Notes: generated from the letters alone by a model not told the origin. Numbered from the stretch's first letter, positions 1,500-64,000 are shown. The stretch is DNA of 64,000 bases from a virus (IMGVR_UViG_3300027790_000002), one strand, 5' to 3'. Numbers and translations are program-made.

Positions 1500-2071
1500 T
1501 GAAAAAAGCGCGCGGCATCATCATGTCGCCGGCCATGGCCAAAGCGGTGTGGGACGGGCGAAAGACCCAGACCCGCCGTCTGGCTTCAAGTAAATTCATG
1601 GCCAGCGTGAAACCGGGCGACGCCCTTTATGTGCGCGAACGCTTCCGGCTCGAGGTCCAGTTTGACGACCTGCCGCCCAACTATCTGCTGTCAACCGGCT
1701 ATAAATCGACGCCGGTCTGGTACGGCGCCGATGGCGAGCCGCCCTCGCGCAGCCCGTGGGACCGCCCTTACGGCAAGCTGCGCCCATCCATTCACATGCC
1801 GCGCTGGGCAGGGCGCATGATGCTGCACGTCACAGAAGTCCGCACCGAAATGCTTCATGCCATCACCGAAGCCGACGCGAAAGCCGAAGGCGCGCAGCGC
1901 GTGCCGGAAATTGGAAACTCCTACCGCGCCGGGTTTCGGGACATCTGGGACGGGCTGCATGGGGCGAAGCCGGACGCCTGCTGGACGGCGAACCCCGACG
2001 TCATCGCCCTGACCTTCCGCGTCGAGAAAATCACCAAGCAAAGCCTTACAGGAGGCCACCGTGAAAACTGA
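1499..2071 (+). CDS. ASCH-domain protein
   Basis: N-terminal IIMSPAMAKAVWDGRKTQTRR matches ASCH-family core motif. Confidence 0.7.
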   Translation: MKKARGIIMSPAMAKAVWDGRKTQTRRLASSKFMASVKPGDALYVRERFRLEVQFDDLPPNYLLSTGYKSTPVWYGADGEPPSRSPWDRPYGKLRPSIHMPRWAGRMMLHVTEVRTEMLHAITEADAKAEGAQRVPEIGNSYRAGFRDIWDGLHGAKPDACWTANPDVIALTFRVEKITKQSLTGGHREN

Positions 2072-2453
2072 ACCGGACAGCCAACTGCTGCCGCTGGCGG
2101 CCCAGATTGTCGCCGCCTATGTGGCGGGGCCAAACAAACTGCCGGCGGAGAAAATCGGCGACACACTCGCCATGGTGCATGAGGCGTTGCAGGGACTGGC
2201 GCAAGGCGCGCCGGTCGTCAACCGCGAGCCTGCCGTTCCCATCGCCAAGTCCGTGACACCCAACGCCATCATTTGCCTTGAAGACGGCAAGAAACTTAAA
2301 ATGCTGAAACGCTATCTGCGCACGCATTTCGATTTGAGCCCGGAAGAATACCGCCGGAAATGGGGGCTGCCGGCGGATTATCCGATGACGGCGCCGAGTT
2401 ACGCCGAACACAGGTCCAAGTTGGCGAAGCAAACCGGCTTGGGCAAACGATAG
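2061..2453 (+). CDS. mucR: Ros/MucR-family transcriptional regulator homolog, degenerate zinc finger (CLEDG...THF)
   Basis: GTG start with CAGGAGG SD; C-terminal IICLEDGKKLKMLKRYLRTHFDLSPEEYRRKWGLPADYPMTAPSYAEHRSKLAKQTGLGKR aligns with Ros/MucR DNA-binding domain; DIVAAYV N-terminal motif. Confidence 0.75.
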   Translation: MKTEPDSQLLPLAAQIVAAYVAGPNKLPAEKIGDTLAMVHEALQGLAQGAPVVNREPAVPIAKSVTPNAIICLEDGKKLKMLKRYLRTHFDLSPEEYRRKWGLPADYPMTAPSYAEHRSKLAKQTGLGKR

Positions 2454-4066: not shown

Positions 4067-4624
4067 ATGAGCGACGATTTGGCGGAAACCCTCAAACCCT
4101 TACAGCAGCTGCCGGACTTGGTGGGCCGGTTGCGCGACGACGGGCTGCCGGACATCTGCAGCGAGGCGGCCAACGAAATTGAGGAATTGCAGGGCTGCTT
4201 CGATATCCGCTGGAAAGCCGATATGCGCGCCATCAAGATGTGGCAGGCGGCGCACCCCGGTAGCGAAAACATCTGGCCGGACCATGCGGAAATGGTCCTG
4301 TGGCTCATGGAACAACTGACAGGCAAAGGAGAAAGCATGGCCTTCAAACCTCTTTACGACCAAGTGCTGGTGAAACTGGAACCGAACAAAAGGGTGACCG
4401 ACGGTGGCATCATCATTCCCGAAGGGGCGCAGGAACAGCCGCAGATTGCGGAAGTGCTGGCCGTCGGGCCGGGCGCACTCAACAGCAAGGGCGTGCGCGC
4501 CCCCATGTCCGTGGCGGTCGGGGACTGGGTTCTTATCAACAAATGGGCCGGCAACGAACTGACCGTGGACGGCGTAAAGGCGCATATTCTGCGCGAGTAT
4601 GACATCATGGGCGTAATCGACTAG
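4067..4624 (+). CDS. groES: GroES (Cpn10) co-chaperonin homolog; 95-aa GroES domain 4337..4624 with in-frame 90-aa N-terminal extension
   Basis: MAFKPLYDQVLVKLEPNKRVTDGGIIIPEGAQEQPQIAEVLAVGPG...VGDWVLINKWAGNELTVDGVKAHILREYDIMGVID aligns along full GroES; strong SD AAAGGAGAAAGC before internal ATG 4337. Confidence 0.75.
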   Translation: MSDDLAETLKPLQQLPDLVGRLRDDGLPDICSEAANEIEELQGCFDIRWKADMRAIKMWQAAHPGSENIWPDHAEMVLWLMEQLTGKGESMAFKPLYDQVLVKLEPNKRVTDGGIIIPEGAQEQPQIAEVLAVGPGALNSKGVRAPMSVAVGDWVLINKWAGNELTVDGVKAHILREYDIMGVID

Positions 4625-6091: not shown

Positions 6092-6171
6092 CTTGACGCT
6101 GGGGGTTATATGTCCCATATTAGGGACATGGAACGGCGCAGGGCCGAACCGGAATTGGAGACAGACCAATG
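6091..6171 (+). promoter_or_regulatory. repeat cassette copy 1: TTGACG -35, 17-bp spacer, palindrome ATGTCCCatattaGGGACAT, conserved leader, GGAG SD, ATG
   Basis: near-identical to the 4 other copies; ends exactly at start codon 6169. Confidence 0.6.
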
Positions 6172-6297
6172 CAAAGCGACCTCATCAAACCCAGCCTTAA
6201 AACCGACTCCTTTGATGAAATGCTGCACAAGTGCGCCGCGCTTGAATTTCTCATAAAGTCCGCCAGATATTTTGTCGCGCAAGGTCTTACAGTTTAG
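6169..6297 (+). CDS. cassette-driven ORF 1 (42 aa), hypothetical
   Basis: ATG is last 3 nt of cassette copy 1. Confidence 0.35.
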   Translation: MQSDLIKPSLKTDSFDEMLHKCAALEFLIKSARYFVAQGLTV

Positions 6298-6320: not shown

Positions 6321-6399
6321 TTGACCTTTTTGCGCGATTGTCCCACATTAGTGACATGGAACGGCGCAGGGCCGAACCGGAATTGGAGACAGACCAATG
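6321..6399 (+). promoter_or_regulatory. repeat cassette copy 2 (palindrome half-site variant GTGACAT)
   Basis: TTGACC -35 at 6321; same leader and SD; ATG 6397. Confidence 0.6.
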
Positions 6400-7740: not shown

Positions 7741-7986
7741 ATGACGCCCAAACAGTTCACCGATTTTGGCGTGGCGCTATATGGCGAAACCAGCTGGAAA
7801 CAGCAGCTGGCGCTGGACCTCGCCATCAACCGCCGCACGGTCGGGCGCTACGCCAACGGCCAGTGGCCCATTCCAGAAGGCGTCGCCGCCGACCTTATCA
7901 ACCTTGCCGGGAAGCGCGCCGAAGCGCTCACAAGGCTGCTGGGCCGCGCGCAAAATAAAGTGAAAAAATCGACCATGGCCGCTTGA
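7741..7986 (+). CDS. putative HTH DNA-binding protein (81 aa)
   Basis: QQLALDLAINRRTVGRYANGQ resembles Cro/CI-type helix-turn-helix; SD GAGAAAGG. Confidence 0.4.
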   Translation: MTPKQFTDFGVALYGETSWKQQLALDLAINRRTVGRYANGQWPIPEGVAADLINLAGKRAEALTRLLGRAQNKVKKSTMAA

Positions 7987-8061
7987 CATTCCGGCGGCTA
8001 TGTCCCACATTAGGGACATGGAACGGCGCAGGGCCGAACCGAAATTGGAGACAGACCAATG
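7983..8061 (+). promoter_or_regulatory. repeat cassette copy 3
   Basis: TTGACA -35 at 7983; perfect palindrome ATGTCCCacattaGGGACAT; ATG 8059. Confidence 0.6.
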
Positions 8062-8355
8062 ACCCAGCAATTTGAAACCGGAAAAACCTACACCTGCCGC
8101 AGCGTCTGCGACGCAGACTGCGTGTGGACCTTCACCGTGGAGCGCCGCACGGCCAAAACCGTGCATTTCCGCAATCATGAAACCGGCAACGTCCACACCT
8201 GCCGCCCGGCGACGGTCGGCGGTGAGGAAGTCGCCAAGCCGCTGGGCAATTATTCCATGTGCCCGGTGCTGCGCGCCAGCAGCGAACGCGCGCCGACGGC
8301 GCAAGCCTTCAACAGCCAAGGCCGTGAACTCACGGTCACCATTCCCCAAGACTGA
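8059..8355 (+). CDS. cassette-driven ORF 3 (98 aa), Cys/His-rich
   Basis: ORF track; ATG fused to cassette copy 3; followed by 11-bp GC hairpin 8361-8389. Confidence 0.5.
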   Translation: MTQQFETGKTYTCRSVCDADCVWTFTVERRTAKTVHFRNHETGNVHTCRPATVGGEEVAKPLGNYSMCPVLRASSERAPTAQAFNSQGRELTVTIPQD

Positions 8356-10719: not shown

Positions 10720-10796
10720 CAGGGTGTGGCGCAGTCGGTCAGCGCGCTCGCCTCGGAAGCGAGAAGCCGCGGGTTCGAGTCCCGCCACCCTGACCA
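10720..10796 (+). tRNA. tRNA-Pro(CGG)
   Basis: acceptor CAGGGTG/CACCCTG, D GCGC/GCGC, anticodon stem CTCGC/GCGAG loop CTCGGAA, T GCGGG-TTCGAGT-CCCGC, A-CCA. Confidence 0.75.
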
Positions 10797-10833
10797 AATC
10801 CGAAAACAGACCACGACACGGCGCTAAATTTTA

Positions 10834-10911
10834 GCCGCCGTAGCTCAGTTGGTCAGAGCGCCGTCCTTGTAAGCCGGAAGTAGCGGGTTCGAATCCACGC
10901 CGGCGGCACCA
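10834..10911 (+). tRNA. tRNA-Thr(UGU), T stem with bulged A
   Basis: acceptor GCCGCCG/CGGCGGC, loop CTTGTAA, T loop TTCGAAT, A-CCA; one mismatch in anticodon stem. Confidence 0.6.
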
Positions 10912-10973
10912 AAATCCAGAAAGTCAGTACGATGAACAAGCGAAGGGAACACCGAGATATTAGCGCCTGACAA

Positions 10974-11049
10974 GGCGCGATGGTGTCATGGGTTAACATG
11001 GTTGACTGTCCATCAACAGCAACGGGTTCGAGTCCCGTTCGCGCCGCCA
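10974..11049 (+). tRNA. tRNA-Asp(GUC)
   Basis: acceptor GGCGCGA/TCGCGCC, anticodon stem GTTGA/TCAAC loop CTGTCCA, T ACGGG-TTCGAGT-CCCGT, G-CCA. Confidence 0.7.
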
Positions 11050-11064
11050 GTGCAGCAGGGCTTG

Positions 11065-11139
11065 CCCGGCGTAGCTCAGCGGTAGAGCGTCCGGCTGATA
11101 ACCGGAAGGGCGCGGGTTCAAATCCCGCCGCCGGCACCA
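11065..11139 (+). tRNA. tRNA-Ile(GAU)
   Basis: D GCTC-AGCGGTA-GAGC, anticodon stem TCCGG/CCGGA loop CTGATAA, T GCGGG-TTCAAAT-CCCGC, A-CCA; apparent C1-C72 mismatch. Confidence 0.65.
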
Positions 11140-11167
11140 GTTTTCGACAGCAACGCGCCTGAATTGT

Positions 11168-11242
11168 TGGCGCGTAGCTTAGTGGTAGAGCACTTGAATT
11201 TGACTCAAGGGGTCGGCGGTTCGAATCCTCCCGCGCCATCCA
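11168..11242 (+). tRNA. tRNA-Gln(UUG)
   Basis: U1-A72 first pair (GlnRS-type), anticodon stem CTTGA/TCAAG loop ATTTGAC, T loop TTCGAAT, T-CCA. Confidence 0.7.
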
Positions 11243-11308
11243 ACCCTTAAAGGTGAAAAAAATGAGACGACATCACGGGACTTTTCGAGAGCGCAGCGCG
11301 TAAACCGC

Positions 11309-11384
11309 GCAGCCTTCGTCTAGCGGTCTAGGATTCCGGCCTTTCAAGCCGGCGACGCCGGTTCAAATCCGGTAGGCTGCACCA
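11309..11384 (+). tRNA. tRNA-Glu(UUC)
   Basis: acceptor GCAGCCT/AGGCTGC, anticodon stem CCGGC/GCCGG loop CTTTCAA, T GCCGG-TTCAAAT-CCGGT, A-CCA. Confidence 0.75.
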
Positions 11385-11385
11385 T

Positions 11386-11462
11386 CCCGAAGTCGTCTAA
11401 CTGGTCAGGACGCTTGATTGTGGATCAGGAAATTACGGGTTCGAGTCCCTGCTTCGGGACCA
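11386..11462 (+). tRNA. tRNA-His(GUG), alphaproteobacterial type (A73, U at -1, no G-1)
   Basis: acceptor CCCGAAG/CTTCGGG, anticodon stem CTTGA/TCAGG loop TTGTGGA, T loop TTCGAGT, A-CCA. Confidence 0.65.
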
Positions 11463-11559
11463 AACAGAGAACGGTGTAAAAAATGTACGAAGTGTACGGA
11501 ACGTACAAACCGAAACGGAAACGGAACGCTTAGCGCAAGCCAGGCGGGCGTGCGCTTAT

Positions 11560-11637
11560 GGGCGCGCCGCCGTCTGGGAATGGCCACCGGCTTTTAACCG
11601 GTCACCTTGTCGGGTTCGAATCCCACCGCGCTCACCA
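11560..11637 (+). tRNA. tRNA-Lys(UUU)
   Basis: anticodon stem ACCGG/CCGGT loop CTTTTAA, T loop TTCGAAT with bulged C in 5' strand, 3' CGCGCTC-A-CCA. Confidence 0.6.
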
Positions 11638-11699
11638 CCTATTTGTTGGAGTCAACCAAATGGCTAAATTCAGGCGACGGCGACGCAACAGACTGAACT

Positions 11700-11775
11700 G
11701 TGCGCGTAGCTCAATGGACAGAGCCGCCGGCTTCTAACCGGCTCAATGCGGGTTCGACTCCTGCCGCGCACGCCA
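11700..11775 (+). tRNA. tRNA-Arg(UCU)
   Basis: acceptor GTGCGCG/CGCGCAC, D GCTC/GAGC, anticodon stem GCCGG/CCGGC loop CTTCTAA, T GCGGG-TTCGACT-CCTGC, G-CCA. Confidence 0.75.
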
Positions 11776-11778
11776 TGC

Positions 11779-11855
11779 AGCCCCGTGGCGCAATGGACTA
11801 GCGCAGCAGATTACGAATCTGAAGGTTCCGGGTTCGAGTCCCGGCGGGGCCGCCA
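11779..11855 (+). tRNA. tRNA-Arg(ACG)
   Basis: D GCGC-AATGGACTA-GCGC, loop TTACGAA, T CCGGG-TTCGAGT-CCCGG, 3' CGGGGCC-G-CCA; apparent A1-C72. Confidence 0.65.
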
Positions 11856-11862
11856 ATTTCAA

Positions 11863-11938
11863 GCGCGGCTACCTTAATGGACAGAGGGCCGGCTTCCGAA
11901 GCCGGAATGTCGGGGTTCGACTCCCCGGCCGCGCGCCA
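11863..11938 (+). tRNA. tRNA-Arg(CCG)
   Basis: acceptor GCGCGGC/GCCGCGC, anticodon stem CCGGC/GCCGG loop TTCCGAA, T CGGGG-TTCGACT-CCCCG, G-CCA. Confidence 0.75.
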
Positions 11939-13304: not shown

Positions 13305-13884
13305 CTCACGCCTTCCGGCCGAGCTTTCGCGCGGCGGCCTTCCGGCTGATTGTTGCTTCCGAGACTTTCCACTTGCGCGCCATCTGCGGGATGCTGATCG
13401 CGTCGTCTTTCCAGTCCCGATCAAACTGCGCCCATGCGGCGCGATCAAGGTCGGCGAGGGCCTTCGGGCGCCCGCCGGGGTTTTTCTTGTGCTTCTCCGA
13501 GCCGCGCGCGTTCGCCGTCTGCGCCTGGCGCTTGTCGCGCGTCAGCGCCTTCGCAATCTTGGCATGGCTTTCGTCGGCGGTGAAATTCTCGGCCATATCA
13601 ATCACATAAACGCTGGCGCGCTGGTCCGTCACGGCGGCGAGAACGCTGAACAAGTCGCCCGCATTCGCCGCAAGGTGGAGCGGTGACAACACGCACAATT
13701 CGTCGCCGGGCCGCAGGATGGCGATCAGGTCGGCGCGTTCCGGGCGCGGGTCTTCGTCCGGGCGCGGTTTCCGCTTCCAGACCTTCTCCGCGATGATCTT
13801 GGCCGCGCCGACATCGGCGAGGGCTTCGCGCTGTTCCTCGACGGAAGCGCCCGCCTTGATCTTGGCCACATATCCAAATCGCAT
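13305..13884 (-). CDS. serine-recombinase (resolvase/invertase) family protein, N-terminal catalytic motif degenerate, C-terminal HTH
   Basis: MRFGY... start; GDELCVLSPLHL...DLFSVLAAV resembles resolvase core; ISIPQMARKWKVSEATISRKAAARKLG is the resolvase-type HTH; canonical RVST-xx-Q serine not evident. Confidence 0.5.
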
Positions 13885-14389: not shown

Positions 14390-14476
14390 GGGCGAGTATG
14401 CAAGCGGTCGAAGCGAGCGGGCTGTAACCCCGCACATTGGAAACGTCGGGGGTTCGAATCCACCCCTCGCCCACCA
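14390..14476 (+). tRNA. tRNA-Tyr(GUA), class II (long variable arm)
   Basis: acceptor GGGCGAG/CTCGCCC, anticodon stem GCGGG/CCCGC loop CTGTAAC, T loop TTCGAAT (3' strand CC-A-CCC bulge), A-CCA; 87 nt. Confidence 0.65.
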
Positions 14477-14662
14477 TCTGCAAATTCAGGATATTTTATT
14501 CAAATCTTATTCACGGTTGACAGTGTCAACGGCGCGCGCCTAGATGGTCCTTGATTTGCACCGCCGCAGGAAGTCCGCCTGCGGAATGACACGGCCAACG
14601 GGAGTAAGGACACATGAAAAACGGTCTGAACATCGCGATATTATGGCGACTCTCGAATTTTG

Positions 14663-14739
14663 GCGCGTGTAGCTCAGTCGGTAGAGCCGCCTCCTCATAA
14701 GAGGTAGGGTCGCAAGTTCAAGTCTTGCCACGCGCACCA
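14663..14739 (+). tRNA. tRNA-Met(CAU), elongator or Ile2-type (no GGG/CCC in anticodon stem)
   Basis: acceptor GCGCGTG/CACGCGC, D GCTC/GAGC, loop CTCATAA, T GCAAG-TTCAAGT-CTTGC, A-CCA. Confidence 0.7.
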
Positions 14740-14741
14740 AT

Positions 14742-14816
14742 AGCGGTGTCCGTCTAATGGTAAGACAGCAGTCTCCAAAACTGAAAATGTGGGTTCGATT
14801 CCCGCCGCCGCTGCCA
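14742..14816 (+). tRNA. tRNA-Trp(CCA)
   Basis: loop CTCCAAA, T GTGGG-TTCGATT-CCCGC, 3' CGCCGCT-G-CCA. Confidence 0.65.
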
Positions 14817-14819
14817 AAT

Positions 14820-14900
14820 CCCCCCGTGGGCAAATTTTGGTAAAGTCACCGGTCTTAAAAACCGGCAGCGTTGCGGGTTCGAGTCCCGCCGGGGGGACCA
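14820..14900 (+). tRNA. tRNA-Leu(UAA)-like, atypical: class-II-type D arm but short (7 nt) variable loop
   Basis: acceptor CCCCCCG/CGGGGGG, D GGC-AAATTTTGGTAAA-GTC, anticodon stem CCGGT/ACCGG loop CTTAAAA, T GCGGG-TTCGAGT-CCCGC, A73-CCA; 81 nt. Confidence 0.55.
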
Positions 14901-14907
14901 ACCACAA

Positions 14908-14984
14908 GGGCTCGTAGCTCAGCCTGGGAGAGCAACGGTTTTGCACGCCGCAGGTCGTCAGTTCAAATCTGACCGGGTCCACCA
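14908..14984 (+). tRNA. tRNA-Ala(UGC)
   Basis: G3-U70 wobble identity pair present; GCTCAGCCTGGGAGAGC D arm; loop TTTGCAC; T GTCAG-TTCAAAT-CTGAC; A-CCA. Confidence 0.75.
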
Positions 14985-14989
14985 GCAAC

Positions 14990-15069
14990 GCCTCGCTGGG
15001 CAAATTTTGGTAAAGTCGTCTGATTTAGGATCAGAAGTTTTCCCGGTTCGAGTCCGGGGCGGGGCACCA
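14990..15069 (+). tRNA. tRNA-Leu(UAG)-like, atypical (same D arm as 14820 tRNA, 6-nt variable loop)
   Basis: D GGC-AAATTTTGGTAAA-GTC identical 22-nt to other Leu-like; anticodon stem TCTGA/TCAGA loop TTTAGGA; T CCCGG-TTCGAGT-CCGGG; A-CCA. Confidence 0.55.
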
Positions 15070-15145
15070 CAAAACAGCGCGGCAAGATCCCGCGCAATGA
15101 AAGGTTAGAACGATGCCAGACGATTCAAGTTCGTCCAGCGAGAAA

Positions 15146-15231
15146 GGAAGGGTGGCAGAGCGGTAATGCAGCGGCTTGCTAAGCCGTAGGGCCTCATGGT
15201 TCCGCCGGTTCGACTCCGGCCCCTTCCGCCA
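15146..15231 (+). tRNA. tRNA-Ser(GCU), class II
   Basis: acceptor GGAAGGG/CCCTTCC, loop TTGCTAA, long variable arm, T GCCGG-TTCGACT-CCGGC, G-CCA. Confidence 0.7.
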
Positions 15232-15235
15232 ATTT

Positions 15236-15321
15236 GGAGGGCGCCGCTCGATGGTAGGCAACCGGTCCCGAAAACCGGGGTGGCGTTCGCGTCAGTGGTT
15301 CGACTCCGCCGCCCTCCGCCA
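15236..15321 (+). tRNA. tRNA-Ser(CGA), class II, apparent C33
   Basis: acceptor GGAGGGC/GCCCTCC, anticodon stem CCGGT/ACCGG loop CCCGAAA (cf E. coli serU CTCGAAA), T loop TTCGACT, G-CCA. Confidence 0.6.
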
Positions 15322-15396
15322 AATTCAGAACCTTTTGAGGTCGGCTGGCCAACGGGCTGCAGACTGAAACGCCCGGGCCTTCCTCAAAGGGTTTGC

Positions 15397-15471
15397 CGCG
15401 CGGTAGCTCAGCGGTAGAGCGCCGGTTTGAAGGGCCGGGCGTCGTGGGTTCAATCCCCACCCGCGCAACCA
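15397..15471 (+). tRNA. tRNA-Phe(GAA)
   Basis: D GCTC-AGCGGTA-GAGC, loop TTGAAGG, T GTGGG-TTCAATC-CCCAC, 3' CCGCGCA-A-CCA; apparent C1-A72. Confidence 0.65.
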
Positions 15472-15514
15472 TGTTAATTTTCGCCCCCTCATTTGAGGGC
15501 GAAAAAATGAACAC

Positions 15515-15590
15515 AGGGGCGTAGCTCAGTGCGAAGAGCGGCTGTTTTACACACAGCGGGTCGCGGGTTCGATTCCTGCCGCCCCCACCA
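15515..15590 (+). tRNA. tRNA-Val(UAC)
   Basis: anticodon stem GCTGT/ACAGC loop TTTACAC, T GCGGG-TTCGATT-CCTGC, 3' CGCCCCC-A-CCA. Confidence 0.7.
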
Positions 15591-15595
15591 GTTTC

Positions 15596-15668
15596 GCGGG
15601 CTTCCTCCAGGTGAGGTAAGGGCCTTCCAAGCCCCCACGGTCGGGTTCGAGTCCCACAGTCCGCTCCA
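15596..15668 (+). tRNA. tRNA-Gly(UCC)
   Basis: U73 discriminator and TCCA end typical of Gly; loop CTTCCAA; T loop TTCGAGT with bulged C. Confidence 0.65.
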
Positions 15669-15673
15669 GTTTT

Positions 15674-15750
15674 TGGGATAGGGCCCCGCTGGTAGGGGCG
15701 CATGGCTGTTAACCATGTCGCTGCAGGTTCGAGTCCTGCTATCCCAGCCA
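15674..15750 (+). tRNA. tRNA-Asn(GUU)
   Basis: acceptor TGGGATA/TATCCCA, anticodon stem CATGG/CCATG loop CTGTTAA, T GCAGG-TTCGAGT-CCTGC, G-CCA. Confidence 0.7.
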
Positions 15751-15751
15751 G

Positions 15752-15825
15752 GCGCGGGTGTCCGAGTGGCAAGGAGCCGGATTGCAACCCCGGTTAGAGC
15801 GGTTCGATTCCGCTCCCGCGCTCCA
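15752..15825 (+). tRNA. tRNA-Cys(GCA)
   Basis: acceptor GCGCGGG/CCCGCGC, loop TTGCAAC, T AGCGG-TTCGATT-CCGCT, U73-CCA as in Cys. Confidence 0.7.
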
Positions 15826-16065: not shown

Positions 16066-16515
16066 GCAATGACGCAGAAACCCTTGCTGGCGGCCTATCT
16101 CGCCGCCGCCGATTTTGAGCATGCTTTCAGGGCGTTGCTGCTGCAGCACGCACAGCACCTTTTCCCGAATATCAGCATCGTTATAACGCTGACGGTTTAC
16201 GCGATGGCCAACGGCGTAAAGACGCCGGCGGACCTCAAACGCTGGCGCGCCTGCACCGGCGCCAACGCCAATTATTCCTGTATGCAGTCCGTCAAAGCCG
16301 GCTTTATCACGATGTGCGACAACCCGGATGATGCCCGCTCAAAGCGGCTGATTTTGACCGAACAGGGGCATCTGCTGGCTGACCATTTGCGGGGCGTAAC
16401 GGACAAGCAATTCACGATGCTGGAAAAATTCACGCCGGCGATGGCGCATTTGCCTGACATCACCAAGCTGCTGCGGGAAATGGTCGATTACAAAATGCCG
16501 ATGGAATGGCGCTAG
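16066..16515 (+). CDS. putative MarR-like winged-helix regulator
   Basis: internal ATG of ORF 16018..16515; SKRLILTEQGHLLADHLRGVTDKQF resembles MarR wHTH. Confidence 0.4.
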   Translation, partial: AMTQKPLLAAYLAAADFEHAFRALLLQHAQHLFPNISIVITLTVYAMANGVKTPADLKRWRACTGANANYSCMQSVKAGFITMCDNPDDARSKRLILTEQGHLLADHLRGVTDKQFTMLEKFTPAMAHLPDITKLLREMVDYKMPMEWR

Positions 16516-17897
16516 TTAAACACGACGTCGCTGAACGGCAACGCGATTTTCTGCAGCTGGGCCGCCTTCCATTCCATGCTGACTCCACCGCCATATTGCG
16601 GCCGTTTGACCGCGTGGCCCATGAACTCCGCCCGTAATTCTGCGTCCAATCCTGCCTCCTTCATGCGGTCTTCAAAGGAATGGCGCAGCGAATAGACCAC
16701 ATGGGCGCCGGACGGCATGAGGCCGCGGTCACGCATTTCTGACAGCAGCAGGTCGGACAGTTCCTTTTCGTTTTCCCGCCAGGCGGGAAACCCTTGCGGG
16801 TTCCGGCGCATCGCCGCCAGCGATACGCCGACCAGCGGGACGCGGCGCGCCGAGCTCCGCGTCTTGATTTCCCGGCCTTCGCGCGGGCGAATGTCCAGAT
16901 AAGGGGCCCAACCGTCCGGTTTTTCGCCGCCGGCGTCCAGTTTTATGGCCTCACTGTTCAGATTGGCGACTTCGCCGGGCCGCGCGCCGGTTTCAATCAG
17001 AATTAACAGGATGTCGCGGGCCTGTGCGTCCATGCCGGCAAGCGCCCCGGGCGCAAGGATCCTGTCGCGAATCCATGCGGTCGGAAAGGGCGGGCGGCGC
17101 TGCTGCTGGCCGCCCTTGAATTTCAGCCCGTCAAACGGGTTGCCGCCGTCATAATCCGGCGCGGTCCATGCCATATATTCGCGGAACAGCTGGCGCATGT
17201 TGCCGAGATCCCGCGCCGCAGTCGCCGGTGTGATTTGCCCGGCGTCGATACGCGCTTGCAGCCAGCGGTGGAACTGGCGGCCGTCGGTGCGTGTGACCGC
17301 GCCCAGGCCTTTGTCCTCGCCTATCGCTTTCAGGAAATTGTTAACCGCCCGCGTCTTCACCTGCCGCCATTTGCGGTATTGTTTCGGGCTTTTTGAGCGG
17401 CGTTGCCCCGCCTCGATTTCTTCCAGATACAGCCGAAACGCCGACCGCACGCTATCGGAAAGCGCCGGCGCGCCGCCCAAGAGCGCCTCCACCATATCCG
17501 CTGGCGGCAGCCCGTCACGGGGGCTGGTGGCGTGGGCGCGCAGGGCGTCCAGCCGCGCCAGCAGCCCCTCGAGCGGGCCGGCGGCGATGTCTTCGGCGTC
17601 CTGATACTCAAACCCCAGCGCCAGCGCCCGCTGCGCCGCCGCCTCGCGCGAGGCCCGGGCGATTGCCGCAGGGCCTGCGTCCAGACCGGCCCAGTAGGCG
17701 TCGTCGGCGGCTTCCAGTTCGTCGCGCATGGTGCGGGCGCGCGTAACGTCGGCGGTGCCAAGCCCGCAGCGAATGAGCGGCGCGCGTTCGTCCAGCAGCG
17801 CCAGGCGCGCCGGCACGCGACGCCTGTAGAACCAGCGGCCTTTTCGGCGCTGCAAATATCGGTTGGGGTCCGTCATCACCGCCGGCGGCTTCGCCAT
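16512..17897 (-). CDS. int: tyrosine recombinase / phage integrase
   Basis: C-terminal VYSLRHSFEDRM...MGHAVK...Y matches R-HxxR-Y catalytic box; convergent with MarR-like gene. Confidence 0.85.
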   Translation of the reverse strand: MAKPPAVMTDPNRYLQRRKGRWFYRRRVPARLALLDERAPLIRCGLGTADVTRARTMRDELEAADDAYWAGLDAGPAAIARASREAAAQRALALGFEYQDAEDIAAGPLEGLLARLDALRAHATSPRDGLPPADMVEALLGGAPALSDSVRSAFRLYLEEIEAGQRRSKSPKQYRKWRQVKTRAVNNFLKAIGEDKGLGAVTRTDGRQFHRWLQARIDAGQITPATAARDLGNMRQLFREYMAWTAPDYDGGNPFDGLKFKGGQQQRRPPFPTAWIRDRILAPGALAGMDAQARDILLILIETGARPGEVANLNSEAIKLDAGGEKPDGWAPYLDIRPREGREIKTRSSARRVPLVGVSLAAMRRNPQGFPAWRENEKELSDLLLSEMRDRGLMPSGAHVVYSLRHSFEDRMKEAGLDAELRAEFMGHAVKRPQYGGGVSMEWKAAQLQKIALPFSDVVFN

Positions 17898-23795: not shown

Positions 23796-24054
23796 GCGTT
23801 AACCCCTTGTGGCGACTTAGGCCATTCCGCTGTGGCACCGTTCGCCTTATTTGTCCATTGCGGAATTACGCGACTTTTGGCAGCTTGTTCCAAGAAACGG
23901 GTCAGGCCGCTTTCCTACCGGACGCACTAACCCTGCGTCCTGCGGTTTCTTTCCACAGCGCGTCGCACCGTCAAGTCAAGGGGTTTCCGGCGCATGACTC
24001 ACCGGTTGAAAGCATGGCGGTGTCGCCTTCAAAACGCAAAGGAGTGTCCCATTT

Positions 24055-24283
24055 CATGCTGATTTCAGGTCTCATCGCCGCCGCCGCCGTCGGCGCAAAC
24101 GCCGCTACCGGACACCCCTTGCCGGCTCTTATGCTAGCCGCCGCCATCGGCCTGGGCGTCGCTTCATGGGGTGAAGGCGTGAGGGCGGCCCCTATCGAAC
24201 AATGCCGCATGTGCGGCGATTGGCACTGGAAACAGACCGGCCCGCAATGCGGCTGCGGTCGATTTGAGGAAGACACGGAATGA
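24055..24283 (+). CDS. small membrane / Cys-cluster protein (75 aa)
   Basis: ATG behind AAAGGAG; tail of ORF 23807..24283. Confidence 0.35.
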
Positions 24284-25071
24284 TTTCACCGCACCTTTTT
24301 TTCGCCCCTTTCGCTTTCATCCTTTCGGCCTGCAGCCGCGCGCCGGCGGCCGAAGACATGCCACAGGCCGCGCAGGCGCAGCAGGAGGAAGACATGGACG
24401 CCGCCGAATATACGGACGAAGAATACGAAGCCCTGCTGGCCGGGTTTGAAAAGGACGCCAACGCGCAGGGATACATGGAACTGCTAAAGCAGGATGGGTT
24501 ATACGCCGACTTTGTCGCCGACCATCGCGCCGACGTGGAAGGCTTCGCCTATTCGTTTCAGCGGCACGGGGATTTTGTCGCCATCTTTCTCGAGCGCCGC
24601 GGCAAAAAGTTTTCCACCACGCTGAACCTTGGAAAGACGCGCGCCATAACCCTGCACGATGGCGAGCCGGCAGACATGGAGGGGAAAATCAAATTTAGCG
24701 TGGTCCAGCGGGACTTGCGCAACGATTTCTATTTTAGGGACAGCTGGAACGGCCCGGCGCCGGAACGGCTGCCGCGCCCACGGCCCAGCGTTGTCTATCA
24801 AGTTAAAATGTTCACGCCCCACCGACAGGAAGAATCGGCAAACCGCCTTATGCACATCGACTCCGGGGAGTCTGGGCTTACCTTTTACAATAATGAATAT
24901 TACCAGCGCGAGCCTTGGGAAAAGTCGGTGGTCGGCGCCGCCCGGCGACCGACCGACGACCACATTGATTTTGAGGGGGTCGGCGCAACACTCTGGACGC
25001 CGCAGGGCGTCGGGCCGAAGGTGTTGGCGGCGCTGCAGCGAGAGATTGCACAGGGCTGGGAAAAAGACTGA
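24280..25071 (+). CDS. putative lipoprotein (263 aa)
   Basis: N-terminal FAFILSAC lipobox-like signal. Confidence 0.5.
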   Translation: MISPHLFFAPFAFILSACSRAPAAEDMPQAAQAQQEEDMDAAEYTDEEYEALLAGFEKDANAQGYMELLKQDGLYADFVADHRADVEGFAYSFQRHGDFVAIFLERRGKKFSTTLNLGKTRAITLHDGEPADMEGKIKFSVVQRDLRNDFYFRDSWNGPAPERLPRPRPSVVYQVKMFTPHRQEESANRLMHIDSGESGLTFYNNEYYQREPWEKSVVGAARRPTDDHIDFEGVGATLWTPQGVGPKVLAALQREIAQGWEKD

Positions 25072-25085
25072 ACGCGAGGCAACCA

Positions 25086-25376
25086 TGACCACCAGACGGC
25101 AATTCCTCTTGGGCGCGGCGGCTGTAGCGATCGCGCCGGCCAAGATGCAGAACCCGATTCCGATTTCTGACGAGGTCCATGTCATTGGCGCCGACTGGGT
25201 CACCACCAAAAGCTTTTCAGCGTTTAGCGTGCGGGCGCGCCGGTCTGATGGCTTCTGGGTGGAAATCAGGCGGTTCGATGTCAGCGAAGTCCCGCGGCGC
25301 TTTAGCGTGCCGGCGGACCTGATCGGCGATGTGCAGACATTTCGCATGCTCCCGAACGGGCGCAAAAGCTCTTAAA
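25086..25376 (+). CDS. small Tat-signal protein (96 aa)
   Basis: MTTRRQFLLGAAAVAIAPA twin-arginine motif; is the in-frame tail of ORF 24659..25375. Confidence 0.45.
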
Positions 25377-25411
25377 AACGCCTGAACGCGTCTAATTGCT
25401 CCCGTGCGGGA

Positions 25412-25790
25412 ACTGAAAACGGGGCGCGCCGAAGCGCCGCCCCGTCCCGGTCTTCTGTTGCCAGGCGACCAAACCCCGTGAAATTACGCCGCGAGGCGCT
25501 GTTCCACAAAATTGCCGTTATCGTTGGCAGTTCTTAAAGTCGGCTTATACGCGGCCAACCGGCGTTCTCAGCTTTCGTTTCACCGTCTGTCGAACCCAAA
25601 TCGGCCCCATCAAGAACGCATCCCAAGGCGGGTTTGGCGCAGGGCATTTTCAACCCATCCACCCGCGGGGCAGGACCGACAAGCGGCGCCGCCACCCCAG
25701 ATGCGCTCTTGGTGGAGCCGGCGGGAATTGAACCCGCGTCCAGTCCAGCTACGCCAAAGCGTCAGCGAGCGCGGCGGAAGGGTAGCATCG
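25412..25790 (-). ncRNA. ssrA: tmRNA (ssrA), two-piece circularly permuted alphaproteobacterial type; tag ANDNGNFVEQRLAA
   Basis: minus strand GGACGCGGGTTCAATTCCCGCCGGCTCCACCA (25738-25707) nearly identical to the E. coli tmRNA 3' T-arm/acceptor, but no 5' acceptor partner upstream; downstream at 25528-25484 reads GCC AAC GAT AAC GGC AAT TTT GTG GAA CAG CGC CTC GCG GCG TAA; ~380 nt precursor size fits two-piece ssrA. Confidence 0.7.
25419..25459. terminator. GC-rich hairpin, candidate bidirectional intrinsic terminator
   Basis: ACGGGGCG...CGCCCCGT stem followed by TCTTCTGTT on plus and GTTTT on minus; sits between Tat-protein gene and tmRNA 3' end. Confidence 0.5.
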
Positions 25791-25831
25791 AATTTTTCAC
25801 GAAAAAAGGTCTGTTTTCGTGAAATTCGGAC

Positions 25832-25910
25832 TTGACCTTTCCGGCTAAATGTCCCACATTAGGGACATGGAACGGCGCAGGGCCGAACCGAAATTGGAGA
25901 CAGACCAATG
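25832..25910 (+). promoter_or_regulatory. repeat cassette copy 4
   Basis: TTGACC -35, perfect palindrome, ATG 25908; divergent from tmRNA gene. Confidence 0.6.
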
Positions 25911-26138
25911 ACAGACATCGCCAAAATCAGCGCTATTGGCCGCAGCACGAAAAAAGAAAAAGACGGCACCTACACCTACCGCGTTTATGCGGTGATAGAG
26001 GGCCAGCCGACAGAGACGCTGGCCATGTGCAAAGATCTGCCGACCCGCGCCATGGCGACTGACCGCGCCAAAAAATGGACCCTTTACTATCGCCGCCAGC
26101 GCACGGCGACGCTGAACAAAACCCGGCGCGGGGCATAG
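25908..26138 (+). CDS. cassette-driven ORF 4 (76 aa), basic protein
   Basis: ORF track. Confidence 0.45.
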   Translation: MTDIAKISAIGRSTKKEKDGTYTYRVYAVIEGQPTETLAMCKDLPTRAMATDRAKKWTLYYRRQRTATLNKTRRGA

Positions 26139-26168
26139 GGCCGCGCGAAACTTGGCAAGGAGGCCACA

Positions 26169-26366
26169 ATGACCACGGAAACCAAAACTGCACCGACCTC
26201 GCATCGCGGCCCCTGCGCAGTCCCCTGCGAATGCGGCGGGACAATGCGCGGGGAAGGCGAAATCGCCACGGGCGAACCTTTGCCGCATTATACACCGGAG
26301 CCGGGCGAAGTGCTGCGGTTTCATTGGTTGGAATGCGACAAATGCGGCGGCGTTCAGGTTTCGTAA
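26169..26366 (+). CDS. small zinc-ribbon-like protein (65 aa)
   Basis: SD AAGGAGG; CxC...CxxC. Confidence 0.4.
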   Translation: MTTETKTAPTSHRGPCAVPCECGGTMRGEGEIATGEPLPHYTPEPGEVLRFHWLECDKCGGVQVS

Positions 26367-26377
26367 GGAGGCGGGCA

Positions 26378-26548
26378 TGCGCAGAATTGACATATTCAAA
26401 CGGCTGGCGGGCGGTGCCGATGGCGAACGCCTCGCCACGGTGGAAGCGCGCACCCAGCGCGAGGCCAAGATCGCCGTTGCGCAAAAACTGCAAAACGAAG
26501 GCAAGGGCTATGGGCCCAGTGATCTGAACGCGCGCTGGGCTTGTTAAT
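26378..26548 (+). CDS. hypothetical small protein (56 aa)
   Basis: SD TAAGGAGG; below ORF-track cutoff. Confidence 0.3.
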
Positions 26549-26722
26549 TTTTTTGACCGAAAATGAGGGGAAAAATCAAAGGCTTATCCCCATGCGGAAT
26601 TGAACGGGAATAATTTGGGGAATATTTTGTGCGGGAAAGTTAGCGATTGCACGGTTCGGCAAATCGCCATTTAGTGGCGGGGCGTTCGGGGATTGGTCGT
26701 TTCCGAACTGCCATACGGCCTT

Positions 26723-27414: not shown

Positions 27415-27491
27415 TGGGTGCGGGAGGGGGATTTGAACCCCCGACCTCTTGGTTATGAGCCAAGCGCGCTACCGGACTGCGCCATCCACGC
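27415..27491 (-). tRNA. tRNA-Met(CAU)-like
   Basis: minus strand: D GCGC-AGTCCGGTA-GCGC, anticodon stem CTTGG/CCAAG loop CTCATAA, T GGGGG-TTCAAAT-CCCCC, 3' TCCCGCA-C-CCA; acceptor needs one bulged U. Confidence 0.55.
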
Positions 27492-27634
27492 ATCAACGGC
27501 GCCGGGCATGGCAGACCGGGTGCGCAATGTCAAGTTTGCGAAAAGCGCCGAACGCGCTTAGCGGTCGATTGTCCGGCGTGACATTGTAGCGTAGCGGTCG
27601 GCGGGCGTTGCTTATCATCGCCGACCCGCTGCAC

Positions 27635-53693: not shown

Positions 53694-54200
53694 TTAAGCC
53701 GCTCCATCATTCGGGAACAGGTCAGAAAACGGATTGACGTTGTCGCCGCCGTTGCCGGCGGAAATCCGGCTGCGCGAACTGGGCGTGCCGCCAAACTCAG
53801 TGGCCAGCGATTTGTAAAGTTCCATGGCCTTGTTCGCTGTTCCCACCAGCGGGCTTTGGATTTTGTTGCCGTTGGTGGTGCCGACCATAAGGCCGTAATG
53901 GTTCTGGTCTTTTTCGCGATACTTCAAAAGCGCCGCCTCGGCATCCTGCCAGCGACCGTATGCCGTGCAAAGCGCGCTGAACGCCCCGCCGTCGATTTCG
54001 GTCAAAATCTGCAGCTTTGAAAGCTTTGGCGCGAGTAAATTCCAATGCGCCAAGGCGCGCGGGTGGTTCGCGACCGATTCCGCAGCTTCCGGCAGAACAA
54101 GGTCGGGCTTAGGCTCGTTTTCGTTTGTCGGCCTTTTGCCTGGATTGCCGCGCACTAGCTTTAGATGGCTGGGCAGCGGCTTTCGTCCGGGTGTCGCCAT
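53694..54200 (-). CDS. terS: terminase small subunit (P27 family)
   Basis: N-terminal GRKPLPSHLKLVRGNPGKRP matches P27-family signature. Confidence 0.7.
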   Translation of the reverse strand: MATPGRKPLPSHLKLVRGNPGKRPTNENEPKPDLVLPEAAESVANHPRALAHWNLLAPKLSKLQILTEIDGGAFSALCTAYGRWQDAEAALLKYREKDQNHYGLMVGTTNGNKIQSPLVGTANKAMELYKSLATEFGGTPSSRSRISAGNGGDNVNPFSDLFPNDGAA

Positions 54201-55527
54201 TTTCTGCTAACTCCTGACTGTCTGCGGATCCTGCGCCCTCTTCAATCTTGGCAGTTCCTTCCGCTTTCTTGAAATCAATTTCATTGTAGCGCTTGCCATC
54301 TGATTCGCGGATAGCGTCTTTGCCGGTATGGTCTTGCCAGCGGCGAATAGCGACATCGACGAATTTTGGCGAAAGTTCGCACACAAACGCCCGGCGGCCT
54401 GTCCGTTCACACGCAATAATCGTCGAACCGCTGCCGCCGAAAGGGTCGCATACCGTCGCGGCGAAGTCGTTTACGTTAATGATTTTCTCGAGTAGCGCGA
54501 CCGGTTTTTCTGTTGGGTGGTTTTTGTTGCCGCTGCGCTGTTCGGTAATCACATTGCCTTGCGCGCTTTTCGGGTCAAACGGCTGCTTTACCTTTGTGGC
54601 CGCCATCACCAATTCGTGCTGCATGCGCCAGCCGCGGCCCATGCCCGGCGTGCCCTTATTCCAGACCACCATATTGCGGACGCCGTAGCCGCAACTTTCG
54701 ACGCTTTCAAAAAGGTGATTCCACATGCGCCAGTCGGTGAATATGTAAACGCCGCCGGCTTTGAACCGCTGCAGAATGCGCTCAATCAGTGTTTGGTAGC
54801 CCTTGCTGGAAAGCGTGTCGTTCGCGATTGTCTCATCGCCGCGCGTGCCAATTGAGCCGCTGCCCTTTCCAGCTTCCTGAAAGCCGCCGGAACAGTAGGG
54901 CGGGTCCGTAAGCATGATGTGCGGCCCTTCGCCGGCCAGCAGTTTTTTAACCACCGCCTCGTCGGTGCTGTCGCCGCAGGCGAGGCGGTGGTCGCCTAAA
55001 ATCCAAATGTCGCCTGGCTGGCTGGTCGGGTAAACTGGCGGCGCCGGCACTTCGTCCGGGTCCGTCTTTCCTTTTTCATCTTCGCCGGCAAGGTAGCCTT
55101 TCAGTTCGTTATCGCCGAAGCCGATAAGCGGCAACTCGAAATCCAGCGCCTGCAATTCCTGCAGTTCGAGCGCCAGCATTTCTTCATTCCAGCCGGCGTT
55201 TAGCGCCAACTGGTTGTCGGCAATGATAAACGCCCGGCACTGGGCGTCGGTCCAACCTTCCGCAATGGTTACGGGTACTTTGTCGATTCCAAGGTAACGC
55301 AGCGCCATAACCCGGCCATGCCCGGCGATGATGGTATTATCCGGCTTAATCAAAACGGTGCCGACAAAGCCCCATTCTTTGAACCCGGCCGCCAGTTGGG
55401 CGATTTGCGCGTCGTCATGGGTGCGCGCATTTCGCGCGTATGGCAGCAGTTCGTTGATAGCGCGCCATTCCTTGGCGTCGGTCAAAAACTGAATGGTGGC
55501 CGGTGTGCGTAGCTGTTTCTTAGTCAT
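54109..55527 (-). CDS. ParB-like nuclease domain fused to DNA methyltransferase (DPPY, N6A/N4C class)
   Basis: ParB box TIIAGHGRVMALRYLG; MTase motifs IMLTDPPY and DPFGGSGST; start set to MTKKQL to reduce overlap with terS. Confidence 0.8.
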   Translation of the reverse strand: MTKKQLRTPATIQFLTDAKEWRAINELLPYARNARTHDDAQIAQLAAGFKEWGFVGTVLIKPDNTIIAGHGRVMALRYLGIDKVPVTIAEGWTDAQCRAFIIADNQLALNAGWNEEMLALELQELQALDFELPLIGFGDNELKGYLAGEDEKGKTDPDEVPAPPVYPTSQPGDIWILGDHRLACGDSTDEAVVKKLLAGEGPHIMLTDPPYCSGGFQEAGKGSGSIGTRGDETIANDTLSSKGYQTLIERILQRFKAGGVYIFTDWRMWNHLFESVESCGYGVRNMVVWNKGTPGMGRGWRMQHELVMAATKVKQPFDPKSAQGNVITEQRSGNKNHPTEKPVALLEKIINVNDFAATVCDPFGGSGSTIIACERTGRRAFVCELSPKFVDVAIRRWQDHTGKDAIRESDGKRYNEIDFKKAEGTAKIEEGAGSADSQELAENGDTRTKAAAQPSKASARQSRQKADKRKRA

Positions 55528-55751
55528 GTAGGGCCCTCCGGGGCTGTGGTTGGCGACCCACGGCGACGGCGGGCGCCCGACCCCCGGCCCGGCCCGACCC
55601 CCGGTCGTTAATTTGCGCAATTAAAAGTTTGTGACCCCTGCGCGGTCCCCCCCCTAGGCGGTGAGGATTTGACCCCACCCCCACCGTTGCGCGTAGGCCA
55701 CACTGTCTCGAAATGGACACGGTTGGGACGCGCCCCACGCTGCCGCAGGGG

Positions 55752-58942: not shown

Positions 58943-59019
58943 TGGTCTGTCTCCAATTCCGGTTCGGCCCTGCGCCGTTCCATGTCCCTAATGTGGGACA
59001 TTTGCCGGGAATTGTCAAG
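58940..59019 (-). promoter_or_regulatory. repeat cassette copy 5 (minus strand)
   Basis: reverse complement gives TTGACA-N17-palindrome-leader-GGAG-ATG identical to plus-strand copies. Confidence 0.6.
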
Positions 59020-59635
59020 CGCCAATTTCGATTTTTTCATCGAATTTGGTGGCCTCATTTCCCCAGCTATCCCAGCCCGGACGCGACTGCCGGCTGAACA
59101 GGTCGGCGCGGCGCATGGCCGTGGGCGGCGTCAGGCGTTCCGCCACCGCATAGGCTTCGTCCGGCTTGCGGCTGTGTTCGCGCGCTGGCGCGGTGATGAC
59201 GCTGCGCACATTCGCCGGCGACGGCGTCGGCGGGTTGCCGACCACGCCGATAAGGAAAGGCTCGTTGCTGCTGCGCAGCCAGTAGCCGGTGCCAAAAAAC
59301 GGCTTGCCGGTCGCCGTCGTCTTCACCCATGTGCCGGCGGTCACAAAGCGAAAGCCCCAGGCGTCCATGACCTCAAACGCTTCGCGCAGCATTGGATTGG
59401 TGGCCCATAGGAACAGGACGCAATCGCGCCCGGCCAGCTGGTTGACAGGCAGCGCCTTGATGTCTTCCAGCGGCATGCAGTCATATTTGGCGCTGGCGTT
59501 CTTGAGTTCGCCCTTTTTCGACCAGTTGTCGAACTTCCACGCCGGGTCGGCCATTATCATGCCGTATTGCATCATGGGCATGGAACCGAACGGCCACTCG
59601 TCACGCACCGTTTGCCACCGCCGCGAAATCCACAA
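59015..59635 (-). CDS. MT-A70-family N6-adenine DNA methyltransferase
   Basis: IMADPAWKF (DPPW motif), LFLWAT, C-terminal EHSRKP. Confidence 0.8.
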   Translation of the reverse strand: MWISRRWQTVRDEWPFGSMPMMQYGMIMADPAWKFDNWSKKGELKNASAKYDCMPLEDIKALPVNQLAGRDCVLFLWATNPMLREAFEVMDAWGFRFVTAGTWVKTTATGKPFFGTGYWLRSSNEPFLIGVVGNPPTPSPANVRSVITAPAREHSRKPDEAYAVAERLTPPTAMRRADLFSRQSRPGWDSWGNEATKFDEKIEIGA

Positions 59636-63956: not shown

Positions 63957-64000
63957 AGATGCGCCAGTCCCGGTGAAACATAATAAAGCGGCGTGCCGTC
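63953..64000 (-). CDS. partial CDS (C-terminal end ...YYVSPGLAHL*), start beyond window
   Basis: open minus-strand frame to window edge. Confidence 0.3.
   Translation of the reverse strand, partial: DGTPLYYVSPGLAHL

Follow-up and report, generated by a model that had tools for sequence, protein, structure and literature searches.

A circularly permuted tmRNA gene carried by a compact, tRNA-rich phage genome

We describe a divergent ssrA gene of the circularly permuted, two-piece kind on the minus strand of a 64-kb stretch of viral DNA (the window, which is the whole stretch that was analyzed), which belongs to a genome assembling into a circle of 73,746 bp. Taking the parts of the reading jointly, we consider it about 80% probable that the gene is phage-borne, structurally intact, and circularly permuted, and that it acts in ribosome rescue as proposed in the Discussion. 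The evidence consists of the match to tmRNA models, the pairing of its helices, the phage-only content of the circle, and the conservation of structure in comparison with bacterial homologues.

Results

A permuted tmRNA gene with a complete tag frame

ARAGORN called a permuted tmRNA (tmRNA*) at 25393-25806 on the minus strand with the tag ANDNGNFVEQRLAA, and two Rfam models matched the same strand over their full lengths. RF04321 (tmRNA_permuted) scored 95.5 bits (E = 2.9e-17, model positions 1-213 of 213, at 25484-25772), and RF01849 (alpha_tmRNA) scored 78 bits (E = 1.8e-19, model positions 1-355 of 355, at 25443-25811). Both matches lie above the gathering scores of the models (47 and 50, respectively), and the detection is far above chance level. 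An earlier sequence-only reading had proposed a circularly permuted tmRNA of alphaproteobacterial type with this tag, a proposal that both kinds of search upheld, ARAGORN by returning the same tag in a permuted gene and the alpha_tmRNA model by scoring 78 against its gathering score of 50. The coordinates given in that reading, 25412-25790, pointed to the right locus but were slightly tight, as the leader and terminator extend the gene to about 25811-25412 (minus strand). The parts of the gene are as follows.

25393..25811, minus strand: whole permuted ssrA unit, made up of leader, acceptor piece, intervening segment, coding piece, and terminator (ARAGORN and Rfam)
25710..25772, minus strand: acceptor piece, with the P2 5′ strands, T-arm, 3′ acceptor strand CGGCTCC, discriminator A, and encoded CCA (Rfam alignment and base-by-base pair check)
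25609..25709, minus strand: intervening segment of 101 nt, folding into a long hairpin that stacks on the acceptor stem (MFE fold)
25602..25608, minus strand: 5′ acceptor strand GGGGCCG, with which the coding piece begins, pairing 7/7 with CGGCTCC at 25720-25714
25589..25601, minus strand: D-loop analogue AUUUGGGUUCGAC, with GGGTTCGAC invariant in the 23-sequence alignment
25538..25565, minus strand: candidate pseudoknot PK1, H-type, drawn from one sequence with its pairs checked
25484..25528, minus strand: tag frame with resume codon GCC, 14 codons giving ANDNGNFVEQRLAA, and stop UAA (ARAGORN, Rfam alignment, and translation)
25453..25465, minus strand: 3′ motif CCUGGCAACAGAA, aligned to the alpha_tmRNA consensus
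25416..25445, minus strand: G+C-rich terminal hairpin with a UUCG loop, followed by UUUU (MFE fold and pair check)

The acceptor piece ends with GGACGCGGGTTCAATTCCCGCCGGCTCCACCA at 25741-25710 (minus strand), of which 25712-25710 is the encoded CCA. Its T-arm pairs at five of five positions (GCGGG/CCCGC, stem 25737-25733 with 25725-25721, loop TTCAATT) and is invariant or compensated across the 23-sequence alignment. The acceptor strands stand in permuted order, with the 3′ strand and CCA first and the 5′ GGGG later, at 25608; the missing upstream partner that had been noticed in the acceptor piece was found downstream, as GGGGCCG at 25608-25602 (minus strand). The acceptor stem has a G·U (G·T in the DNA) at pair 3, and ACCA follows the 3′ strand. 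A G·U at the third acceptor pair is the identity element for AlaRS.

Removal of the 101-nt intervening segment from the precursor would be expected, and its basal helix shows covariation (columns 100-107 with 194-201) when the gene is aligned to its bacterial homologues. The region of the D-loop analogue touches SmpB and the T-loop in known tmRNAs. The long-range P2 helices connect the 5′ portion of the acceptor piece with the stretch that follows the D-loop analogue, and of their modelled pairs 14 of 16 are canonical in the Rfam RF04321 alignment.

The tag frame had been placed downstream of the CCA, running from GCC to LAA and TAA, and it is present there at 25528-25484 (minus strand), with the codons GCC AAC GAT AAC ... 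CTC GCG GCG TAA. The context of the resume codon is plausible, with an A at -4 of GCC and the candidate pseudoknot ending about 10 nt upstream. This PK1, which is drawn from a single sequence and is without covariation support, would consist of a 4-bp S1 (ACGC/GCGU) and a 7-bp S2 (GGUUGGC/GCCGACU, including two G·U pairs); the Rfam model annotates a short hairpin alone in this region. Beyond the stop codon, CCUGGCAACAGAA corresponds to a motif conserved in the 3′ regions of alphaproteobacterial tmRNAs, which reads CCUAGCAACAGAA in the bacterial homologues.

Elements at the two edges of the gene

The terminal hairpin is an 11-bp stem with one bulge at 25445-25419, with UUUU on the tmRNA strand, and is a candidate intrinsic terminator or 3′ hairpin. 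A homologous UUCG hairpin and T-run are placed in the same way in bacterial permuted ssrA genes. The element sits between the tmRNA and convergent plus-strand genes ending at 25375, so it could serve both sides. It had been called a bidirectional terminator, which agrees with the hairpin and UUUU on the tmRNA strand but less well with the plus strand, where there is no good T-run; a simple terminator scan did not list the hairpin. Bidirectional action is plausible from the arrangement of the genes. The ORF that converges on the terminator (25085-25375, plus strand) gives a weak match to a twin-arginine signal (E = 3.8e-4, under the Pfam cut-off).

The tmRNA is a lone minus-strand unit, with a convergent plus-strand operon at 24056-25375 on one side and a divergent plus-strand cassette at 25908-26547 on the other. 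Two elements lie at its 5′ edge.

25795..25824, no strand assigned: A+T-rich inverted repeat CACGAAAA...TTTTCGTG (self-inverted match)
25821..25912, plus strand: promoter-like cassette facing away from the tmRNA and feeding the ORF at 25908-26138, one of five copies

The inverted repeat may be a leader hairpin or an operator. A scan of 24800-26600 recognized no sigma-70 promoter upstream of the tmRNA, and an Rfam scan gave no credible riboswitch or other RNA family beside it.

In the promoter-like cassette, CTTGAC is followed after about 17 nt by the palindrome TGTCCCACATTAGGGACA, and then by a conserved 5′ UTR, GGAG, and ATG. Its five copies (6104-6172, 6339-6399, 7961-8063, and 25821-25912 on the plus strand; 59039-58940 on the minus strand) are 90-100% identical, and each runs as far as the start codon of a short ORF (42-98 aa). 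This arrangement resembles a repeated promoter-operator-leader unit, possibly with one shared repressor. A Logan contig breaks within the cassette repeat.

The gene lies on a circle of phage-like genes

Each of two ENA contigs, ERZ27250866:k141_2343337 and ERZ27250943:k141_2827878, measures 73,887 bp, with a breakpoint of its own, and the first and last 141 nt of each map to one interval in window numbering, the two junctions being at about 23979-24119 and 69518-69658. A terminal overlap of 141 nt is the k-mer overlap that a circular assembly should leave, and subtracting it (73,887 - 141) gives the size of the circle, in which 9,746 nt join window position 64000 to position 1 at 100% identity. 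A JGI contig of 73,816 bp shows a third breakpoint. Exact window proteins are present on at least six public contigs, although the assemblies may share samples or come from related ones, and their 100% identity is not an independent sign of conservation. The main genome features to which we refer are listed here.

30-54 kb, minus strand: structural and lysis module, with TerL, portal, major capsid, minor tail, a 2056-aa tape measure, and lysozyme
16512-17897: tyrosine integrase
807-883, 10720-11938, 14390-15825, and 27415-27492: tRNA loci, most of the genes in two arrays (10.7-11.9 and 14.4-15.8 kb)

The annotated genes of the circle are all phage-like (TerL, portal, capsid, tape measure, lysozyme, integrase, methylases, RusA, replication initiator, and GcrA/GapR/MucR-like proteins), and among them no housekeeping or host gene occurs anywhere on the 73,746 bp. 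Other genes in the window encode DUF1643, DUF5131, GroES-like, methyltransferase, and SNF2 helicase proteins, and the 9.7 kb beyond the window hold two more methylases, RusA, a replication initiator, and GcrA- and GapR-like proteins. The GroES (Cpn10) homologue at 4067-4624 (plus strand) carries about 90 additional residues at its N terminus that match no family. Four DNA methyltransferases were found, a ParB-N6/N4 fusion, an MT-A70, a C5, and a D12-class N6 enzyme (54109-55620 and 59015-59635, minus strand; L017 5824-7503 and 7500-8327), which presumably serve in anti-restriction, CcrM-like host mimicry, or both.

The sequence-only reading had offered two origins for the gene. Either the phage encodes its own tmRNA, or this is a chromosomal host ssrA that served as an integration landmark, with prophage or tandem island DNA on either side. 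Integrases commonly target ssrA (PMC4383910, PMC10865867) and this phage has a tyrosine integrase. However, the circle closes without host genes, and the integrase is 7.5 kb from the tmRNA with about ten genes between them. The G+C content of the window is uniform at about 60%, and in the coding piece the identity to the closest bacterial ssrA of the sample is only about 62-65%. The window also holds no att-like duplicate or fragment of the tmRNA gene, as the other att site would need, and the repeats touching the region in our att search were only the 52-100-bp promoter cassette and a generic T-arm similarity to phage tRNAs. A prophage att site in host ssrA would be marked by flanking host DNA and by a displaced copy of the 3′ part of the gene; with no host gene on the circle and no such copy in the window, the landmark reading is extremely unlikely. 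Since the circle closes with phage-like genes only, the tmRNA is phage cargo and not an ssrA at a prophage junction, in keeping with the first of the two origins.

The same genome carries 25 tRNA genes for 19 amino acids in 73.7 kb (ARAGORN). There are two copies each of tRNA-Lys(UUU) and tRNA-Met(CAU) and three of tRNA-Arg, whereas the whole circle yielded no tRNA-Gly. Between the two arrays lie a block of small ORFs and a resolvase-like gene (13306-13884, minus strand). About 700 bp separate the end of the second array from the integrase gene, and attP may therefore be located in or near this array.

The phage looks temperate, with its integrase and five promoter cassettes bearing a palindromic operator. 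Its host is probably alphaproteobacterial, as homologues of Ros/MucR, GcrA, and GapR, which are global and cell-cycle regulators of Alphaproteobacteria, point to such a host. The Ros/MucR homologue is at 2061-2453 (plus strand) in the window, and those of GcrA and GapR are outside it (L015 413-610 and 1811-2071; L017 2369-2629 and 3830-4027). The presence of these three homologues points to a possible takeover of host cell-cycle control.

SmpB was absent from the precomputed Pfam tables, the scanned ORFs, and a six-frame search of the phage. The query for the six-frame search was E. coli SmpB, which found SmpB at 41-44% identity in two bacterial loci used as controls.

Structure is conserved at a distance from bacterial permuted ssrA genes

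By pattern, we sampled at least 120 bacterial and at least 79 metagenomic or viral permuted genes. None among the permuted genes listed exceeds about 65% identity to the phage gene in the coding piece, and the closest bacterial type among the matches listed is a Microvirga-like group with the tag ANDNVDMGAVRLAA, at about 62-65%; as the sampling was capped and limited to the pattern, a closer bacterial gene may exist. The genes with this tag came from a pattern search of metagenomes; several are on contigs of 140-820 kb, and one contig of the group is annotated Microvirga sp. (Hyphomicrobiales). The middle of the phage tag, GNFVEQR, matches no tag among the sampled genes. The ssrA genes of the ANDNVDMGAVRLAA group fall into length classes of about 345 and about 405 nt (for example L275 2320-2662 and L283 8635-9039, within L262-L337), which differ only in the intervening segment, of about 40 versus about 100 nt.

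An alignment of 23 sequences, comprising the phage gene and 22 bacterial or metagenomic permuted ssrA genes, has a common architecture of tRNA-like domain, GGGUUCGAC, tag start and end, the CCU(G/A)GCAACAGAA motif, and the UUCG hairpin with T-run. RNAalifold recovered the T-arm, the acceptor stem, the basal helix of the intervening segment, and P2, with two-sided changes in 30 of its 63 predicted pairs. At acceptor pair 5 the phage gene differs from the bacterial group in both bases, with G-C in place of C-G (columns 90 and 211).

The T-arm/acceptor region of the phage gene is identical to Microvirga-type ssrA at 31 of 32 positions, a likeness that could also be read as a sign that the tmRNA is tied to lysogeny, either by holding attP for a host ssrA or by replacing a host ssrA destroyed on integration. 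The temperate look of the phage fits such a role, and tRNA-dependent lysogeny exists for tRNAs, having been demonstrated for mycobacteriophages (PMC10865867). However, the identity is limited to the constrained T-arm, where exact matches to the sampled bacterial tmRNAs reach 23 nt at most, compared with typical cores of 30-45 bp (PMC10865867). The acceptor difference is compensated within the phage gene, and a crossover there would mismatch the acceptor stems; in addition, the tmRNA is not beside the integrase. We consider a lysogenic role very unlikely. The same low probability applies to its fuller form, a tmRNA-dependent lysogeny in which host ssrA would be disrupted or recombined on integration, after which trans-translation with the phage tag would come from the prophage copy. 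If this were true, protein quality control in the lysogen would run on a phage-encoded tag.

Relatives of the phage and of its tmRNA among viral sequences

Our own scan of IMG/VR found at least 119 contigs with permuted tmRNA genes having an 80-110-nt spacer, part of which may be host genes at prophage edges. Among these, the best coding-piece identity to the phage gene is 63-66%, and only the tRNA-like domain is similar. Odd tags, either ESYALLHL or 28-30 residues long, were called on viral contigs L049, L058, L106, L054, L078, and L118, and they may be ARAGORN frame errors or genuinely unusual phage tags. In deposited phages, the tmRNA matches a 32-nt T-arm stretch in a Bordetella phage and nothing longer, and the 12-kb region around it has no match there; the exact 30-mer of the tag region is absent from IMG/VR.

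A TerL probe found no relatives in GTDB genomes or IMG/VR, and thus pointed to no prophage copy or host; the 263-aa neighbour had none in an IMG/VR search. The nearest relatives, at 44-58% identity overall (TerL 58%, on FSSH01000399.1 of GCA_900149775.1; tail protein 44-46%), are available as stretches that end before the region equivalent to the tmRNA. Relatives of the lysozyme or of the 174-aa neighbour (33-58% identity) occur at 23 IMG/VR loci, none of which has a tRNA or tmRNA within 8-10 kb. As these loci are without RNA genes nearby, the tmRNA is accessory and could be dispensable, and the pattern suggests that the tRNA and tmRNA genes are lineage-specific cargo.

The absence of the gene from contigs sharing its neighbours would also fit a non-functional passenger, a captured ssrA copy that has lost its expression or processing, as would the lack of a promoter in the sigma-70 scan and the atypical 5′ leader hairpin. 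However, the helices and motifs that we checked are intact although the nearest bacterial genes are about 35% divergent, and the acceptor stem carries a compensatory change, whereas decay should break pairs or the 45-nt frame. Helices and frame left unbroken at such divergence argue against a decaying passenger, which we regard as scarcely credible.

Discussion

The features described above are best accounted for by an intact phage ssrA gene taking part in ribosome rescue. The steps of the proposed mechanism are drawn from the two-piece tmRNA of Caulobacter and from general knowledge of trans-translation. The gene would be transcribed as one precursor ending at the UUCG hairpin. Host RNase P would cut 5′ of GGGG, tRNA-processing enzymes would trim the acceptor piece to the encoded CCA, and the 101-nt intervening hairpin would be discarded. 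The resulting acceptor piece (~60-100 nt) and coding piece (~200 nt) would be held together by the acceptor stem and P2. Host AlaRS would then alanylate the molecule via the G3·U pair, and host SmpB and EF-Tu would bring the charged tmRNA to ribosomes stalled on broken mRNAs. Translation would resume at GCC and add the ANDNGNFVEQRLAA tag, whose conserved ANDN start and LAA end should send the product to proteolysis of the host SspB/ClpXP type. Since the phage is without SmpB, it would need host SmpB, AlaRS, RNase P, and EF-Tu. The likely benefit is that the tRNA set and the tmRNA together sustain ribosome recycling as infection raises mRNA breakage and translational load.

The dependence on host SmpB also bears on an anti-host role, in which the phage tmRNA would compete for SmpB and stalled ribosomes or alter the targets of tagging. 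With no phage SmpB found, the tmRNA must compete for the host protein, and the middle of its tag has no counterpart in those of the sampled genes. A tmRNA-like RNA of mycobacteriophage DS6A that has no CDS inhibited E. coli tmRNA, as reported in PMC11915505, and counter-tagging or selective tagging has been proposed for Lacusarx and Melnitz (PMC5648845, PMC9004378). If this role were true, phage proteins could be shielded from tagging, or tmRNA-dependent host responses could be blunted. However, the tag frame is complete, and an ANDN start with an LAA end makes an ordinary degradation tag, not a disabled or decoy one; sequence does not separate competition from simple supplementation. We consider an anti-host role unlikely and retain ribosome rescue as the preferred reading.

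A phage-encoded two-piece tmRNA is an already documented kind of gene, and the main value of this case lies in correct annotation, as the locus should be labelled a phage ssrA and not a prophage boundary or a host marker. It is also mildly unusual to find a near-complete tRNA set and a tmRNA in a small siphophage that bears an integrase, since published cases are mostly phages of more than 130 kb, while here 25 tRNAs and the tmRNA are carried in 73.7 kb. A complete circular genome with GcrA, GapR, and MucR homologues would make a compact system for the study of phage tmRNA function, if the host is found. In addition, the two length classes of the ANDNVDMGAVRLAA group offer a natural series for spacer tolerance in the processing of permuted tmRNAs.

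Comparison with known systems

The closest known system is the alphaproteobacterial two-piece tmRNA (RF01849/RF04321), which is functional in Caulobacter according to Keiler, Shapiro and Williams (2000), as cited in PMC9004378. The phage gene has the same order of acceptor piece, CCA, intervening segment, and coding piece, and it shares the G3·U stem, P2, a tag of the form ANDN...LAA, the CCUGGCAACAGAA motif, and the terminal hairpin. Although the alpha_tmRNA consensus has a reduced T-loop and D-loop, the phage gene has a canonical UUCAAUU T-loop and GGGUUCGAC. The 5′ leader hairpin of alpha_tmRNA is largely unmatched in the phage gene, which also has about 40 nt fewer than the consensus after the stop codon, a short spacing that occurs as well in bacterial genes of Rhodospirillales and Hyphomicrobiales. 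The general permuted model scores the phage gene higher than the alpha model (95.5 versus 78 bits), the reverse of the average in PMC11915505. The bacterial ANDNVDMGAVRLAA group is similar in its 14-residue tag ending in RLAA, its GGGUUCGAC, its UUCG terminator hairpin, and the subclass with an intervening segment of about 100 nt, but it differs in being chromosomal and in its P2/PK1 region and 5′ leader.

Several precedents exist for phage tmRNAs, two-piece ones among them (PMC9004378, PMC11915505, PMC5648845, PMC13459779, PMC7162821). The sequence-only reading had called them rare, which is fair at 402 of 18,146 phage genomes (about 2%), yet they are well documented, with 133 unique structures, of which ARAGORN assigns 53 as two-piece (PMC9004378); the tmRNA database holds 79 unique phage sequences (PMC11915505). 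Methylophilales phage Melnitz has a two-piece tmRNA of alphaproteobacterial type (PMC9004378) with a riboswitch upstream, unlike the locus studied here, where the Rfam scan gave none. Sphingobium phage Lacusarx has 24 tRNAs and a tmRNA in 130 kb (PMC5648845), and phiCbK-like Caulobacter phages such as Shash/Senya have a tmRNA, an integrase, and GcrA-like genes (PMC13459779). Huge phages carry tmRNAs (PMC7162821), and mycobacteriophages are among the known carriers as well. Some huge phages carry SmpB, whereas none was found in the phage studied here, and the genomes of the phages named here range from 130 kb to more than 200 kb, compared with 73.7 kb in this case. What our phage shares with Melnitz, Lacusarx, the phiCbK-like phages, the huge phages, and the mycobacteriophages is that its tmRNA is carried as cargo together with tRNA genes.
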